Shown here: positions 20,876 to 26,306 of the stretch, in pieces
Numbering within the stretch: the first letter of the stretch is position 1
Layout: every line of letters starts with the position of its first letter
Source of the DNA: Oceanispirochaeta sp.
GTDB lineage: Bacteria; Spirochaetota; Spirochaetia; DSM-2461
DNA length: 64,000 nucleotides
Direction: 5' to 3'
NCBI GenBank assembly: GCA_963663385.2
Contig: CAXXXD010000002.1
Coordinates: forward strand, 992,001 to 1,056,000
The notes under the pieces: model-generated
Told to the model about the DNA's origin: nothing
The model's database searches: none
Seen by the model: the letters and a program-made list of their open reading frames with translations, nothing else
Made by a program: the position numbers and the translations under genes

Positions 20876-21829
20876 ATGAATCCGCTTGTTTTCGATATTT
20901 ACAAAATGTCAGCCCATGACGGGCCGGGGATGAGAACAGTGATATTTCTGAAAGGCTGCCCCCTCAGATGCCGGTGGTGCCATAATCCGGAGAGCTTCCG
21001 TGCTTCTCCGGAAATCTGGGTCTATCCCGAGAGGTGTATCGGATGCGGCCAGTGCCTGGAGTCCTGCCCGGAAGGTGCTCTGTCATTTGATCAGAAGAAG
21101 CGGCCCCTGTTAAACCGGCAGCTCTGTACAGGCTGCGGCCTGTGCTCGGCTGTCTGTCCGGCAAAAGCCCTGGTTGATATAGGTAAATCCTGCTCAAAGG
21201 ACGAGCTTATGAAAATAATTCTGAGGGAAAAGACCTTTATGGATGAAACGGGCGGGGGCGTTACCTTTTCCGGCGGGGAGGCTCTTCTCTATCCCGGGTT
21301 TCTCAGTGAAATGCTGAAGGCCTGTAAAGAGGTCGGGGTTCATACGGCAGTGGATACCTGCGGGGCGGTTCCCTGGGAGAGCCTGGAAAAGGTTCTCCCT
21401 TTTACGGATCTTTTCCTCTATGATCTGAAAATACTGGATCCGCGGGAGCATAAAAAATATACGGGTCTGGGTAACAGGAGGATCCTGTCCAATCTGGAAA
21501 AGCTGAATCCTGTTCTCAGGCGGGAGAAGAAGACACTCTGGATCCGGACTCCCCTGATCCCGGGAGCTACGGACGGTACGGCTAACATCAGGGGCATTGC
21601 CGAATACATCAAAGCTAAACTGGTTCCTCTGCCTGAAAGGTGGGAACTGTGTGCTTTCAATCCTCTGGGCGAGGAGAAATACAGACGGCTGGATCTGCCA
21701 TGGGAGTATAAGAGGGGGTTCATGCTGGAGCAGAAAGCGGCAGACTCCCTTCTGCATACGGCAGGAGAGGTTTTCAGAGGAGCGGGTGAAGCCGGAATTG
21801 TCCGGCTTACAGGTCTGACTGCCTCCTGA
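20876..21829 (+). CDS. Glycyl-radical enzyme activating protein (radical SAM with 2x[4Fe-4S] ferredoxin insert)
   Basis: HDGPG.RTVIFLKGCPLRC.WCHNPES, CIGCGQC...CP, CTGCGLC...CP, GGVTFSGGEAL. Confidence 0.96.
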   Translation: MNPLVFDIYKMSAHDGPGMRTVIFLKGCPLRCRWCHNPESFRASPEIWVYPERCIGCGQCLESCPEGALSFDQKKRPLLNRQLCTGCGLCSAVCPAKALVDIGKSCSKDELMKIILREKTFMDETGGGVTFSGGEALLYPGFLSEMLKACKEVGVHTAVDTCGAVPWESLEKVLPFTDLFLYDLKILDPREHKKYTGLGNRRILSNLEKLNPVLRREKKTLWIRTPLIPGATDGTANIRGIAEYIKAKLVPLPERWELCAFNPLGEEKYRRLDLPWEYKRGFMLEQKAADSLLHTAGEVFRGAGEAGIVRLTGLTAS

Positions 21830-23465
21830 GGGATTCCTGGTATTCAACAGGAGTTATCCCCATGGCCTTGTGGAAGTTTCTGAAAAAGTAACTCCTGCTG
21901 GTGAAGCCTACGGCAATCCCGACCTGTCCCGCATTCAGGGAACTGGTTTTAAACATATGACAGGCTCTGTCTATACGTGTCCTGTTCAGGTAGAAGGAAA
22001 AGGACTCTCCCGCTTCTTCCCTGAACAGCTTCCCCAGATAGGAAGCACTCATCTGGAACTGCTGGGACAGGGTTTTCAGTGAGAGCGGCGCCGAGTAATT
22101 CTGATCTACATAATTGATCAGTCTGCGGGCAATGCTGCTGTCAGAACGTTGTATCAGTTCTTCAGAAATCGCCAGAGACAATTTCCGCAGCCAGTCTATT
22201 AGATCTTCCGGAGATTTCTGTTTAAACAGCTGTCTATGAAGGTTCGCATATCCTCCGGTTAGACTCTCCTTATCCAGTTCCTCCTTTTTAACAAGCGAGA
22301 GAAGATCGGAAAGAATTTCAATCAAAAACCCGATACAGTACTCCCTGTCTGCTGCAGGGTGGTTGGTATAATCCATGAGCAGTCTGTTAAAAAAGTGACT
22401 GATAAGGGTTGTACTCCCTTCTATAATACCGCATATCAGATCATCTGTTTCAATTTCCCCGAAAGGCGTGTCTTCCCTTACAAAGCGGTCAAGGGATGCC
22501 TTGTCAATTATCCGTACGGGCAGGTAGGTAATCGGTTCAATCTCCAGGCCGTTGAACCAGTCTACAGCTGTTTTAACGGGCAGGGTTCCGTCCTGAACAG
22601 GATCCTGCCAGGTTATGGCATTCAGGCTGCCGTTTCGCAAAAGGGCAATCCCAACGGGTGTGCTCCCGTTGGCAACCCGGATCAGATCGGCTCTGCCATA
22701 CCGCGCCAGAGCATCGTTTATGCCCAACTGGCTTGTATTGTCATCCGCACTGATAATTCCCTTCAGTTTCGTTCCGTGTTTTACAAGCCAGGACAGCACC
22801 ATGTCGCATGTTTTCTGTCTGTTCAGCCCGGCCGAAGCCATTTCAAGCAGCTTCATACCCGGAGCACATTCCGCGAGTTCCGTTATGGCTCCCCATGCCC
22901 TGGCGTAATAGGGGGAGGTCCCCGGCAGGTGGGTAACAATGGCATAGCCGCCTTCATGGTTCATCAAACGGGCAAAGTGCCGGCTCAACTGCCTGGTCTG
23001 TTCCCAGTCATCCGGACCGGTCCAGGAGAGGATGTAGGGAAAACCGTCATCCTCCGGGAGCATATTGCTTGCAATGACAGCTATGCCGGCTTCATAGAGT
23101 CGTCTGTACAGGTAGGAACTGTCTTCATTGCTTTCCGGCATCAGTATAACAATGTCAGGCTTATCTTCGATAATGGCTTCAACCTGCTGATCCTGGAGTT
23201 CCGGATCCCACCCGGCATTGTAGATACTCAGCACCATTCCCTTTTTTAATGCCGCCTCACGGAGTCCCCGTATATATTCTCTCTGATAGGGGTGATCTCC
23301 CGCCAGCAGGGCAGCTATCCGTTTCCCCTCCGGTCCTGTTTCAGGGGGAGGCGGCTGCCTTTTTTTTCCGATATGCCAACCGGCATATTCCTTGTCATAC
23401 CAGTGTTCAGGCCTGGTTTTCGGGTATTCAGTCGGTTCTTCCGGACGGGGAGGGATGAATTTCAT
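21807..23465 (-). CDS. Fusion regulator: sugar-binding (RbsB-like) domain + AraC HTH (paralog 1)
   Basis: N-terminal HWYDKEYAGW, WTGPDDW; C-terminal LSLKTLS...SASYLGKLFREE.G..F, VGF....YF...F.K..G.TP; no signal peptide or TM helix. Confidence 0.85.
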   Translation of the reverse strand: MKFIPPRPEEPTEYPKTRPEHWYDKEYAGWHIGKKRQPPPPETGPEGKRIAALLAGDHPYQREYIRGLREAALKKGMVLSIYNAGWDPELQDQQVEAIIEDKPDIVILMPESNEDSSYLYRRLYEAGIAVIASNMLPEDDGFPYILSWTGPDDWEQTRQLSRHFARLMNHEGGYAIVTHLPGTSPYYARAWGAITELAECAPGMKLLEMASAGLNRQKTCDMVLSWLVKHGTKLKGIISADDNTSQLGINDALARYGRADLIRVANGSTPVGIALLRNGSLNAITWQDPVQDGTLPVKTAVDWFNGLEIEPITYLPVRIIDKASLDRFVREDTPFGEIETDDLICGIIEGSTTLISHFFNRLLMDYTNHPAADREYCIGFLIEILSDLLSLVKKEELDKESLTGGYANLHRQLFKQKSPEDLIDWLRKLSLAISEELIQRSDSSIARRLINYVDQNYSAPLSLKTLSQQFQMSASYLGKLFREEAGESFSFYLNRTRIDRACHMFKTSSLNAGQVGIAVGFTSRSYFFRNFHKAMGITPVEYQESLRRQSDL

Positions 23466-23540: not shown

Positions 23541-23568
23541 TTGACAAATGGTAAAATTGTGATAAAAT
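23541..23568 (+). promoter_or_regulatory. Host sigma70 promoter, originally for the UroD-like gene and now upstream of the IS110
   Basis: TTGACA-16 nt-TAAAAT with extended TG. Confidence 0.6.
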
Positions 23569-23674
23569 ATAGGTAAAATAAAAACAAAATTTTATCACAG
23601 TTTGTACGAAATGCTCACGGCCTGGTTATGCAAGCGGGCTTGAGAGTTTTTACAGGAGGAATGATAAAAAGTCT

Positions 23675-23870
23675 TCATAGGCTTGTGGATTGATACAATG
23701 TTCTAAACATCGTTTAGAACAGCCAGGTTACTGTTCGCCATTTTTACTGGTCTCCGAGACCGTACAGGAGAATGAAGAGCCGTGACCGAAACATTCAATG
23801 GTCTTCGAGACCGGATAGGAGAATGGAATCAATTCACCGTACAGGCGCTGTTTTAGGCAATAGGAGCGAA
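23675..23870 (+). ncRNA. Candidate IS110 bridge RNA (target-binding loop ~23741-23770, donor-binding loop ~23792-23821); ends approximate
   Basis: 5' hairpin TGTTCTAAAC-atc-GTTTAGAACA, then two modules 51 nt apart of the form [8-nt guide]-GGTCT(C/T)CGAGACC-G-[8-nt guide]-AATG. Their guides match the reconstructed target and donor junctions. Confidence 0.75.
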
Positions 23871-23873
23871 GGT

Positions 23874-24986
23874 ATGAAGATGAGTATCGGAGTGGATCTG
23901 CACAAATCCCAGTTAACAGTCTGTTTCCTGAGTGATGATAGAAGCATTTGTGAATCAGGAATGTATCCGACCTCTGAGGACGGTTACAGAGCATTTCTTG
24001 AGAAAGCAGTGTCCTATACAGAAGAGGGCCTTGATGTTAGGGCTGCAGTGGAATCAACAGGAAATGCCCGGTTCTTCCGTAACAAGCTATTGCTAGCAGG
24101 GATTGAGGTGGTGGTTGTGAATACACTGAAATTCAAAGTTGTAAATGAATCAGTGAAAAAGACGGATAAGCATGATGCCAGAACTCTAGCAGAGTTCTTG
24201 GAAAAAGATATGCTTCCCGAATCACAGCTTTGTTCTCAGGAGAGTGAGGATATCCGTAGAGTTCTTAAATCCAGAACTATCCTTGTTAAATCAGTCGTAT
24301 CTTTGAAGAATCAGGTTCACGGACTGCTTCTAGGGTATGGAATTGAAACAAAAAGAGCTGCGCTGCAGAGTAAAAAAGAAAGGCAGCGCATCCTCATCGG
24401 TCTCGTGGACCATAGGAGTTTCGGAAGCGCTGCCAAAGCGATAGAACCGCTGCTTTCTACGATAGATCAGGTTTCGAACCAGGTCAAGCAGTTAGAGAAA
24501 GTCCTGCTGGAACTTGTAAAGGAAGATGAGGATGTACAGTTATTGCAGACGATCCCGGGAGTCGGATTGATAACGGCATCGACTATTAGGGCCTATACGG
24601 ATGATATCAAGCGGTACGCCAGTGCCAAGAAGTATTCGGCTTATGCCGGTCTTGTACCATGGGTGCAGAACTCCAATGAGACGATTCATCATGGGCATAT
24701 AACAAAGAGAGGGGCTGTAGAACTGAGAACGGCATTTGTTCAGTGTGTTATGGGAATGGTTAGAACTCGGAAAACGACTGGCAATTACCGTATCATGACG
24801 AAGTACAGAGCGATGAAGAAGAACAAGGGCAGCGGCACGAGTATTATCGCCTCTGCAAGAAAGATGAGTACGGTAGTGTACTCCATATTGAAAACCCGTG
24901 AACCCTTTGATCCGTTGAAGATGGTTCCGGATGATAAGTACTTGAAGATGCAGGCGGCTGCATTCAATGCCGTAAAAACTGGGTAA
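23874..24986 (+). CDS. IS110-family transposase/recombinase (DEDD RuvC-like + Tnp domain)
   Basis: SIGVDLHK (D), AVESTG (E), KTDKHDA (DD), LQTIPGVG, YAGLVP..QNS......G.ITKRG; ATG 23874 follows AGGAG. Confidence 0.95.
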   Translation: MKMSIGVDLHKSQLTVCFLSDDRSICESGMYPTSEDGYRAFLEKAVSYTEEGLDVRAAVESTGNARFFRNKLLLAGIEVVVVNTLKFKVVNESVKKTDKHDARTLAEFLEKDMLPESQLCSQESEDIRRVLKSRTILVKSVVSLKNQVHGLLLGYGIETKRAALQSKKERQRILIGLVDHRSFGSAAKAIEPLLSTIDQVSNQVKQLEKVLLELVKEDEDVQLLQTIPGVGLITASTIRAYTDDIKRYASAKKYSAYAGLVPWVQNSNETIHHGHITKRGAVELRTAFVQCVMGMVRTRKTTGNYRIMTKYRAMKKNKGSGTSIIASARKMSTVVYSILKTREPFDPLKMVPDDKYLKMQAAAFNAVKTG

Positions 24987-25046
24987 TCCGGTTCAATTGT
25001 AAGCTTGTTAATAGGCTTATGATTGACTTTTTATAGGAGTAAAAAA

Positions 25047-26306
25047 ATGACTTCAAGAGAAAGAGTTCTGGCCTCTGTCAACCACAGGTCTCCCGATCGG
25101 GTTCCCATTGACCTCGGCGCTACTCCCAGTTCCGGGATATCGGCGGTGGCCCATAACAATCTGATTAAACATCTGGGCTGGGCGGATTCTCCCACCCGGA
25201 TCTACGATGTGGTGCAGCAGCTTGCCCAGCCTGATGAAAAGCTGATAGAGCTTCTGGGGGTGGATATTCTGGATATTGGCCGGACCTTCAATACGTCTCC
25301 CGAAGACTGGTATGAGATAGATCTTCAGAATGGGGGTAAAGCGCAGTACCCGGTCTGGTTTCGTCCTGTCAAAAATGAAAAAACCGGAGAGTGGGAGGCT
25401 TTTCACCGGACCAGCGGGCGAAAGATTGCGTCCATGCCCGACAGCGCCACCTTCTATGATCAGTCATACTTCCCCTGGGTGAACGGATACCCGGACAGCC
25501 GGCAGGGGATGGAAGATGCTCTGGATGAGGCAATGGACCATATCCTCTGGTCCCATCTTGTGCACAGTCCCTGGGACCATGCGGGAGATGCGGGTTTTTT
25601 TGATACCCTCAGAAGCAACACCCTTGCCCTGCGGAAATCCAGCGATAAAGCCCTGATGGTTGTAAACGGGTGCAACCTTTTTGAATGGGGCACCTTTCTC
25701 CGCCGTATGGATAACTTTCTGATGGACCTCTATGTGGAACAGGATAAAGTAGCCATGCTGATGGAGCTGCTCATGGAACGGCATATGAAGGGCCTTGCCA
25801 AAACCTGCGAAGCCGTGGGGGATACGGTTGATATTTTGCGTTTCGGTGATGATCTGGGTATGGATTCGGGGCCTTTTATGGGACTGGAAGTGTACCGGGA
25901 CCTTTTTCATGAACACCGTAAGACTCTCTGTTCCCATGTGCATCAGAACAGCAGCATGAAAACCTTTCTCCATACCTGCGGGTCCATGCATCAGTATATA
26001 CCCAGCCTGATAGAGGAGGGAATGGATATTATCAATCCCGTTCAGACCAACTGCCGGGATATGGAGGCGGATAAACTGAAAGAGGAATTCGGGAAGGATA
26101 TCGTTTTCTGGGGCGGCGGAATGGATCCCCGGGTAATTCTGAATACGGGAACCCCGGAACAGGTCCGGGAAGAGGTCCGGAAGCGTCTGGACGTATTTAC
26201 TCCCGGGGGCGGATATGTTTTCAACAATATTCATAATATTATGCCCGATGTGCCGCCGGAAAATATCCTGGCCATGTTTGAGGAAGTTCAGAAATATCAG
26301 CTGTAG
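25047..26306 (+). CDS. Uroporphyrinogen decarboxylase (URO-D)-fold protein, MtaA/CmuA-like putative methyltransferase
   Basis: MTSRERV.....H..PDRVPID, GDDLG, FLHTCG, NPVQ, FWGGG, GGGYVF...HNI.PDVPPENI. Confidence 0.85.
   Translation: MTSRERVLASVNHRSPDRVPIDLGATPSSGISAVAHNNLIKHLGWADSPTRIYDVVQQLAQPDEKLIELLGVDILDIGRTFNTSPEDWYEIDLQNGGKAQYPVWFRPVKNEKTGEWEAFHRTSGRKIASMPDSATFYDQSYFPWVNGYPDSRQGMEDALDEAMDHILWSHLVHSPWDHAGDAGFFDTLRSNTLALRKSSDKALMVVNGCNLFEWGTFLRRMDNFLMDLYVEQDKVAMLMELLMERHMKGLAKTCEAVGDTVDILRFGDDLGMDSGPFMGLEVYRDLFHEHRKTLCSHVHQNSSMKTFLHTCGSMHQYIPSLIEEGMDIINPVQTNCRDMEADKLKEEFGKDIVFWGGGMDPRVILNTGTPEQVREEVRKRLDVFTPGGGYVFNNIHNIMPDVPPENILAMFEEVQKYQL

Follow-up and report, generated by a model that had tools for sequence, protein, structure and literature searches.

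The 64,000-nt stretch of Oceanispirochaeta sp. DNA analysed here (the window) carries on its forward strand an insertion sequence of the IS110 family, 1381 bp in length (23659–25039), whose limits were set by ten copies in the same genome with differing flanks. Eight of these copies are identical and the other two carry one substitution each; with ten copies separated by 0–1 substitutions, the element is evidently active. A recombinase gene is preceded by a non-coding left end of 215 nt and followed, after its stop codon, by a non-coding right end of 53 nt. Within the left end, a first-pass annotation had proposed an RNA with two guide-bearing modules, and the strings and coordinates that it gave for both, as well as the 51-nt spacing of their hairpins, are all present in the sequence. 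The features on which the argument draws are the following.

23541–23568, forward strand: promoter-like site of the interrupted host gene, TTGACA-16-TAAAAT, with 11 of 12 consensus matches and a TG
23651–23658, forward strand: left half of the target, TACAGGAG, which serves the downstream gene as Shine-Dalgarno sequence (ACAGGAG in 8 of 10 copies)
23664–23673, forward strand: left subterminal inverted repeat ATAAAAAGTC, perfect reverse complement of 25025–25034
23685–23837, forward strand: putative bridge RNA core, a long-range stem (23685–94 with 23828–37) around a 5' stem-loop (23700–20), the target loop and the donor loop
23726–23787, forward strand: putative target-binding loop (module 1), with base stems formed by 23726–36 and 23777–87
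23739–23774, forward strand: parts of module 1, namely CAU 23739–41, 5' guide 23742–48, hairpin 23749–61, G 23762, 3' guide 23763–70 and AAUG 23771–74
23741–23774, forward strand: strings of module 1, namely TTTTTACT (23741–48), hairpin GGTCTCCGAGACC (23749–61), G, TACAGGAG (23763–70) and AATG
23792–23825, forward strand: putative donor-binding loop (module 2), with CAUUC(AAU) 23792–99, hairpin 23800–12, G 23813, (G)AUAGGAG 23814–21 and AAUG 23822–25
23792–23825, forward strand: strings of module 2, namely CATTCAAT (23792–99), hairpin GGTCTTCGAGACC (23800–12), G, GATAGGAG (23814–21) and AATG
23874–24986, forward strand: recombinase gene, 370 aa, with DEDD/RuvC-like and Tnp domains (PF01548, 8.7e-21; PF02371, 4.6e-19)
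24993–25026, forward strand: terminator-like hairpin in the right end, followed by CTTTTTAT (pattern scan only)
25025–25034, forward strand: right subterminal inverted repeat GACTTTTTAT, which together with 25023–24 reads TTGACT and is -35-like
25040–25049, forward strand: right half of the target, comprising the spacer (TAAAAAA) and the ATG start codon of a URO-D-family gene (25047–26306)

The element opens with GAATGA (23659) and closes with TATAGGAG (25032–39), and its joined ends, right end to left end, read GACTTTTTATAGGAG-GAATGATAAAAAGTC. The AGGAG immediately 5' of the element (23654–58) is identical to its last 5 nt, and owing to this repetition the sequence alone places the crossover, and with it any 'core', only to within 5 nt. 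In the contigs of four public sequencing runs, 23654–25039 comes out as a repeat apart from its flanks, with about ten times their depth, and no joints were found in these contigs, neither an empty site nor a circle junction. Inverted repeat pairs of the form ATAAAAAG / TTGACTTTTTAT occur in 53 of the 73 elements that have both ends. Between the two inverted repeats, the joined ends hold 10 nt (AGGAG + GAATG), split 5 + 5 as drawn here or 7 + 3 if AG is given to the left end, and the shared AGGAG fits both divisions. With the terminator-like hairpin of the right end, found by pattern scan only, the downstream gene may or may not still be expressed.

On the protein level, the NF033542 model ('IS110 family RNA-guided transposase') scores 228 bits on the recombinase against a cut-off of 140, and the protein combines a DEDD RuvC-like domain with a Tnp domain in which the catalytic serine is aligned. 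Alignment with the IS621 recombinase (61.3 bits) covers the C-terminal domain only and sets the serine of YESG opposite the S of QNS; the scores against IS4321 and ISCro4 are 70.1 bits (31% identity over 237 aa) and 60.8 bits, respectively. Judged by score, and by pairwise comparison only, the recombinase would be about equally distant from IS4321, IS621 and ISCro4. A likeness to TIGR arrays had also been suggested for the guide-hairpin-guide units; it does not amount to membership, as TIGR-Tas arrays consist of many repeat-spacer units beside a Tas (Nop-domain) effector, whereas there are two modules only here, they lie inside an insertion sequence, and TIGR_Tas_endo reaches 29.2 bits against a cut-off of 100.

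Relatives were drawn from a scan of a genome collection, which gave 76 loci at 32–79% protein identity, mostly in metagenome-assembled genomes, and from a left-junction motif scan of metagenomes, which gave 119 stretches, many of them chance matches inside unrelated genes. The 105 candidate rows extracted by script were reduced to 95 after false starts and duplicates had been dropped. The labels of these relatives include Spirochaetia, Desulfobacterales, other delta-proteobacteria, Lentisphaeria, Gracilibacteria, WWE3, Dehalococcoidales, Dysgonamonadaceae and Clostridia. Orthologues at 51–79% identity retain the left end G-N3-GATAAAAAG, the right end TTGACTTTTTATAGGAG and both modules.

Each of the two loops is made up of a closing stem, a 5' guide, a GGUCU-NNN-AGACC hairpin, a G and a 3' guide, and the two are near-identical. 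The window holds two instances of the composite pattern GGTCTYCGAGACCGNNNAGGAGAATG (hairpin-G-NNNAGGAG-AATG), and 100 shuffles did not produce it once. By itself, TACAGGAG is not rare there, with four matches against 1.3 expected, so that a guide match in a single copy is weak evidence.

That the left end encodes a folded RNA is supported by covariation among the orthologues. The window's own left end folds with an MFE z of -4.15, and 52 of 54 distinct left ends were aligned (L033 and L106 were excluded for indels in a hairpin or in loop 2) and compared with a structure that we had named ourselves and that comprised, besides the long-range stem and the 5' stem-loop, the stems at the base of loop 1, both hairpins and both CAU/AUG closings. 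In this alignment the structure is paired in 85.8% of cells; shuffling gives 78.3% (the observed value being reached by none of 500 shuffles) and sliding of the partners at most 45.6%, and both sides have changed in 200 cells against a shuffle mean of 82.8. Compensatory changes are found at nine of the ten pairs of the long-range stem and in both hairpins (in that of loop 2, GC to AU in 18 sequences and UA to CG in 16), and the CAU/AUG closings are conserved, without compensatory change. Furthermore, G-U pairs are frequent, with U-G in 26 sequences at one pair, which argues that it is the plus-strand transcript that folds. The AATG that trails each 3' guide most likely pairs with CAU as a closing stem and does not serve as a guide or handshake segment. 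A search of Rfam gave five matches, none of which was relevant or came near its gathering score (for the best, 21 bits against 49.9). A handshake, in which AATG would pair with the other DNA, was also considered and set aside: by eye, AATG is unchanged where the left end has become GCACG, GTATG or GCATG.

In all ten copies in this genome the left flank ends in AGGAG (ACAGGAG in eight, GCAGGAG in one and AAAGGAG in one), and the right flank offers 6–8 A/T-rich bases and then an ATG, the start of an ORF of 98–689 aa that runs in the direction of the transposase gene; the element therefore sits between a Shine-Dalgarno sequence and a start codon. At the window locus, the right flank reads TAAAAAAATG (25040–49), the right end TATAGGAG replaces the Shine-Dalgarno sequence with the original spacing kept, and the orthologue of the URO-D-family gene has an unbroken 5' leader in four genomes of the same genus. 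An AC precedes AGGAG-N5-8-ATG at 9.7% of 1437 sites in the genome, against eight of the ten occupied ones (P = 3e-7); ACAGGAG itself occurs at 1462 sites, of which eight are occupied. The same habit extends through the whole clade, which down to 33% protein identity inserts between Shine-Dalgarno sequence and ATG in the gene direction, and a Lentisphaeria group at 33% identity, with another scaffold, also reads Shine-Dalgarno sites.

The 3' guide of module 1, (T)ACAGGAG, equals the left flank of the window element, and the first-pass annotation had proposed that alignment of orthologues should reveal covariation between the two. This was found: guide and flank were compared position by position at the 84 sites whose left flank is 9 nt or longer (22 distinct guides), and at positions -7 to -5 they agree in 64, 79 and 83 of the 84, against shuffle means of 30, 39 and 67, the sum being reached in none of 5000 shuffles, which, like the other shuffle tests, ignore kinship and genome composition. 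At position -8 the match is weak (32 against 26, reached in 399 of 5000 shuffles), the G after the hairpin is mismatched, and positions 6–9 of the comparison are invariant. Given covariation at -7 to -5, weakness at -8 and the mismatched G, the pairing would extend over about 7 nt; of the two eight-of-eight guide matches originally described for module 1, that of the 3' guide is thus firm over 7 nt (ACAGGAG). The 3' guide classes include CAAAGGAG, TTAAGGAG, TTTAGGAG, TACAGGAG and AGGGGAG, and in a subgroup of nine elements CACGGAG stands in both guide and flank, so that the clade is not tied to AGGAG.

In module 2, the 3' guide ATAGGAG is the same as the element's last 7 nt, and since guide and element end are both nearly invariant, no covariation is visible. 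The 5' guide CATTC is the reverse complement of element nt 1–5, and over 58 distinct elements the two agree at 278 positions, where shuffles average 258 and none of 5000 reaches the observed count. Among variant left ends, GCACG is accompanied by CGTGC in three of three cases, GCATG by CATGC in one of two and GTATG by CATAC in one of three. Variant left ends occur in 13 distinct elements, and in seven of these the loop-2 guide is not an exact complement: four are one base off, including one each with GCATG, GTATG and GAGCG, L036 is two bases off, and L040 (one base off by a second count) and L080 show no fit. Pairing of CATTC with GAATG inside the RNA was entertained separately and rejected, as by eye the guide follows the DNA, not the RNA partner, in L031, L037 and L061.

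The 5' guide of module 1 is a more delicate matter. The 7 nt between CAU and the hairpin vary among orthologues, are U-rich and are complementary to A-rich spacers; the other eight-of-eight match, that of TTTTTACT, proved peculiar to the window copy, the right flanks of the remaining copies being A-rich but inexact. In this genome, TAAAA, the complement of the guide, is matched at 2.9 of 5 positions at the ten occupied sites against 1.6 at 217 free ACAGGAG sites with an ATG 4–10 nt away (P = 0.0002), and AAAAA separates the occupied sites as well as TAAAA does, so that more than one register would suit this guide and a general preference for A/T-rich spacers may be at work. Among orthologues (64 sites, 27 guides), where all figures may be inflated by guide and spacer composition common to one genome, fixed registers gave a weak signal (best 258 against 234.6, reached by 3 of 3000 shuffles), and a flexible register gave a best-run sum of 185 against 162.3 over the 64 sites (1 of 5000 shuffles), or 96 against 80.4 without the TTTTACT guide (4 of 5000); alignment of the conserved CAT on the start codon gave 155 against 125.2 (0 of 5000), or 73 against 55.4 without the TTTTACT guide (2 of 5000). 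At 25 sites whose spacer differs from 6 nt, anchoring on the ATG yielded 63 of 100 matches against 52–58 for anchoring on the junction, which is suggestive, not decisive. Long matches are found in L150 (CACAGA), L031 (9 of 10), L027 and L106 (AAACATG). On these comparisons, the complementarity of the target 5' guide to the A-rich spacer before the start codon appears real but weaker.

We regard it as highly probable that this IS110-family insertion sequence encodes, in its left end, a bridge (seek) RNA whose target loop precedes its donor loop. A bridge RNA with these two loops is what the first-pass annotation had put forward, and it is upheld by the IS110 domains, the NF033542 score of 228 bits, the compensatory changes and the covariation of guides with flanks and element ends. 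In the mechanism envisaged, the 3' guide of loop 1, (N)ACAGGAG, which has the sense-strand sequence of the Shine-Dalgarno site, would pair with the antisense strand over about 7 nt, and the U-rich 5' strand CAU-UUUUACU would complement the sense strand of the A-rich spacer and may reach the ATG. Loop 2 would read the donor, formed by the joined right and left ends, with AUAGGAG corresponding to the element's last 7 nt and CAUUC complementing its first 5 nt. The DEDD/serine recombinase would then exchange strands within or beside the shared AGGAG, and this exchange would place the element between Shine-Dalgarno sequence and start codon in the gene direction, with TATAGGAG re-creating the Shine-Dalgarno sequence at its original spacing. 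We infer both the production of the RNA and its binding by the recombinase, as well as where strands are exchanged, in which register the 5' guide pairs and how the host gene is affected. In IS621-type systems the recombinase binds the RNA and altered guides redirect the choice of sites; here, natural reprogramming of the guides is seen as covariation only. A further step, which we advance tentatively and judge to fall short of an even chance, is that the target loop may read an entire translation initiation region, recognising the Shine-Dalgarno sequence through its 3' guide and, through CAU and the variable 5' guide, the start codon and the bases that precede it, with the ATG setting the register. 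In that case the element's joined ends, ATAGGAG-GA-ATG, would mimic such a region, which would account for the near-duplicate loops, and the element would home into leaders in the gene direction, borrow the host promoter for its RNA and recombinase, and supply a replacement Shine-Dalgarno sequence.

Other readings of the same modules have to be weighed against the bridge RNA with a full set of guides. The likeliest of these would retain the RNA, both 3' guides and the donor 5' guide, and would leave the 5' strand of loop 1, TTTTTACT, unpaired with the target, the right half of which would be picked for A/T-richness and easy melting (half-site recognition). The equal discriminating power of AAAAA and TAAAA for occupied sites in this genome fits such an arrangement, as do the weak fixed-register tests and the 15 copies in the Spirochaetia MAG OY776510.1 (L011–L024 and L029), which share one guide and whose right flanks are unrelated beyond A-richness; moreover, recombination at half matches is reported for IS621 in the abstract of a 2026 preprint (10.64898/2026.08.31.748434). 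However, the 7 nt of the target 5' guide vary between orthologues as a guide would, guides that contain G/C occur with matching flanks (L150, CACAGA; L031, CAG..ATG; L122, GTAAG), and the subset without TTTTACT still exceeds its shuffles in both the best-run and the ATG-anchored comparison (96 and 73, as given above), and we consider half-site recognition unlikely on balance.

Much less probable is a scheme in which the recombinase itself recognises Shine-Dalgarno DNA and the 10-bp repeats, the modules being protein-binding or structural repeats or a translation-control leader, and the AGGAG strings ribosome-binding-site mimics rather than guides. The constancy of AGGAG in both modules and in nearly all targets renders most of an eight-of-eight match uninformative, and perfect 10-bp inverted repeats around the donor centre resemble protein-recognised recombination sites; against this, the three variable guide positions follow the flank across 22 guide classes, and neither the change to CACGGAG in guide and target together (nine elements) nor a donor guide that tracks changes of element nt 1–5 would be expected from a protein-only or leader function. 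Least probable of all, to the point of being barely credible, would be an RNA-free scheme in which the modules act as hairpins of single-stranded DNA flanked by guide bases, in the manner of IS200/IS605. Stems with compensatory changes are equally compatible with DNA hairpins, but the protein is a DEDD/Tnp IS110 recombinase without features of an HUH transposase, the many conserved G-U pairs of the plus strand would turn into A-C on the opposite strand and, in DNA, into T-G mismatches, and the fold includes a 150-nt long-range stem.

The preferred reading, a bridge RNA with target and donor loops, invites comparison with IS621, the member of the IS110 group whose bridge RNA and recombinase have been described (Durrant et al., 2024, PMC11208160; Hiraizumi et al., 2024, PMC11208158). 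As in those descriptions, the RNA would lie in a long left end upstream of the recombinase gene and consist of a 5' stem-loop, a target loop and a donor loop, each loop would comprise a stem, a guide, a stem-loop and a second guide with a G directly after the stem-loop, the guides would pair with opposite strands of the half-sites, and the donor would be the joined right and left ends; the DEDD + Tnp protein architecture with its aligned serine is likewise shared. Unlike the arrangement reported for IS621 (PMC11208160), the order of the guides is reversed, the 5' side here complementing the transposase-sense strand (right halves) and the 3' side equalling it (left halves). In addition, a long-range stem surrounds all three parts, the two loops are nearly identical, it is the 3' guide that is long and specific, the perfect inverted repeats measure 10 bp against 2–3 bp in the IS621 reports, and the protein is only distantly related.

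An orientation opposite to that of the transposase gene had been noticed in the first-pass annotation; it is real, and it is at the same time the order already published for IS1111-type seekRNAs. In ISEc11, ISKpn4 and ISPa11, the complement of the top strand lies 5' of the match to the bottom strand (Siddiquee et al., 2024, PMC11187229), and the same article defines the IS1111 family by subterminal inverted repeats of 11–13 bp, extensions beyond the repeats of 7 bp at the left and 3 bp at the right, and a downstream non-coding region, and mentions, but does not analyse, a few upstream-region exceptions (ISMtsp17). With the IS1111 elements so described, the window element shares the guide order and perfect subterminal inverted repeats; it differs in that the RNA region lies upstream of the gene, not downstream, with only the 53 nt of the right end following the stop codon, in repeats of 10 bp against 11–13 bp, and in a target that is a translation start region. 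By eye, IS4321 of plasmid R751 (L206) has the same guide order and the same 10 nt between repeats at its joined ends, there split 3 + 7, and the protein is at least as similar to that of IS4321 as to that of IS621. As read from the sequence, the architecture is a hybrid, in which the IS110 layout (upstream RNA, long left end) is combined with IS1111 site polarity and long repeats.

Insertion at translation initiation signals in a fixed orientation has been reported for IS900, an IS110-family element of Mycobacterium avium subsp. paratuberculosis (Doran et al., 1997, via PMC8141618). The window element is likened to it by that report of insertion. The transposase gene of IS900 runs opposite to the target gene, whereas that of the window element runs with the gene. 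The bridge or seek RNA mechanism and the homing of an IS110-family element to translation start signals are thus known already; the hybrid architecture, the near-identical loops and the RNA-level reading of Shine-Dalgarno sites across a broad clade appear to be new. A search for a bridge RNA that targets ribosome-binding sites gave no such paper among the matches listed, and the supplements of the 2024 papers may list the clade. Bridge and seek RNAs, described in 2024, are under development as programmable recombinases, and the present element is compact (1381 bp), evidently active and accompanied by many natural guide variants. Because the clade mixes hallmarks of IS110 and IS1111, it could help to show how the RNA moved between element ends, and it offers an RNA-level explanation for the long-known homing of some IS110-family elements to translation start signals. 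Should the start codon indeed be read, this would be a mobile element that targets not a repeat but a functional signal standing before many genes, the ribosome-binding site with the start codon.

Two sources of transcription can be proposed for the RNA. The left repeat ATAAAAAGTC includes a -10-like TAAAAA preceded by TG, and across the joined ends it would form with the -35-like sequence of the right repeat a candidate junction promoter of the kind that IS621-type systems rebuild at their joined ends, TTGACT-17-TAAAAA with TG, whose -10 hexamer lacks the T at position 6; a promoter scanner made no call at the natural right-end/left-end junction of L178, and the promoter across the joined ends is a weak candidate only. 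The interrupted host gene has a strong promoter-like site that lies about 90 nt ahead of the element and is directed into it, and since the insertions all lie in leaders and in the gene direction, read-through from host promoters into the bridge RNA could provide an alternative source.

Among the related loci recovered in the genome-collection and metagenome scans (handles L plus a number), several hold miniature elements with ends of the family type:

L015, positions 1180-1287: miniature element
L121: miniature element, 101 bp
L089: miniature element, 157 bp
L096: miniature element, 187 bp

All four carry the left end GAATGATAAAAAG and the right end ..TATAGGAG as in the family, lack both the gene and the guide modules, and lie with a Shine-Dalgarno sequence on one side and an ATG on the other; those of L015 and L121 are homologues of one another. 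Such miniature elements are probably non-autonomous derivatives, mobilised in trans.

Right ends resembling those of the miniature elements also adjoin full copies, as is the case in MAG OY776510.1, which has 15 full copies, at least 5 of them directly 3' of such a sequence (..CCATGCAGGAATTTCTTATAGGAG):

L015, L016, L021, L022, L029: full copies adjoining a miniature-element-like right end, MAG OY776510.1

This placement implies that a Shine-Dalgarno sequence regenerated by one element is what the next one targets, a re-use that gives rise to tandem arrays. A further close arrangement occurs on a metagenome contig of 1822 bp shared by L177 and L178, where a second left end directly follows a full copy (TGACTTTTTATAGGAG-GAATGATAAAAAG). 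The contig holds either two copies joined head to tail or a circle junction captured by assembly; it starts with AAAGGAG, which matches its own target guide, GCAAAGGAG.

Other loci (L064; L106 and L157; L041, L043, L062 and L071) are element variants and wrecks: in L064 the 3' target guide is present twice (GTGAAGGAGACC-GTGAAGGAG), L106 and L157 have an insertion in loop 2, and in several copies part of the left end is missing.

A subgroup and a divergent group also stand out:

L092, L094, L150, L152, L153, L173, L181, L187, L194: subgroup with CACGGAG in the target guide and left flank
L072-L085: divergent group, Lentisphaeria CP091727.1, 33% protein identity

The CACGGAG subgroup, whose 5' guide includes GTG, appears to use a target other than a ribosome-binding site; its sole available right flank, TACACAGAG in L150, agrees with the guide across CACAGA. 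The Lentisphaeria group has an RNA scaffold unlike that of the family, different ends (ATGGTATGATAAAT ... TTTTATCATAGGAG) and the guide GGAAAGGAG, and likewise inserts between ..AAGGAG and N6-9-ATG.

Within the window, residues 182-266 of the recombinase (23874-24986) weakly match the model of the TIGR-Tas endonuclease (E = 8e-7; score 29.2 bits, where the cut-off is 100), which fits a distant kinship of the two protein families and is no evidence of an array in the window. Next to the element lies a regulator:

21807-23465, minus strand: 552-aa regulator, periplasmic-binding-protein domain and AraC-type HTH

It is divergent from, and upstream of, the interrupted URO-D-family gene, and the element sits between the regulator's promoter region and that gene.
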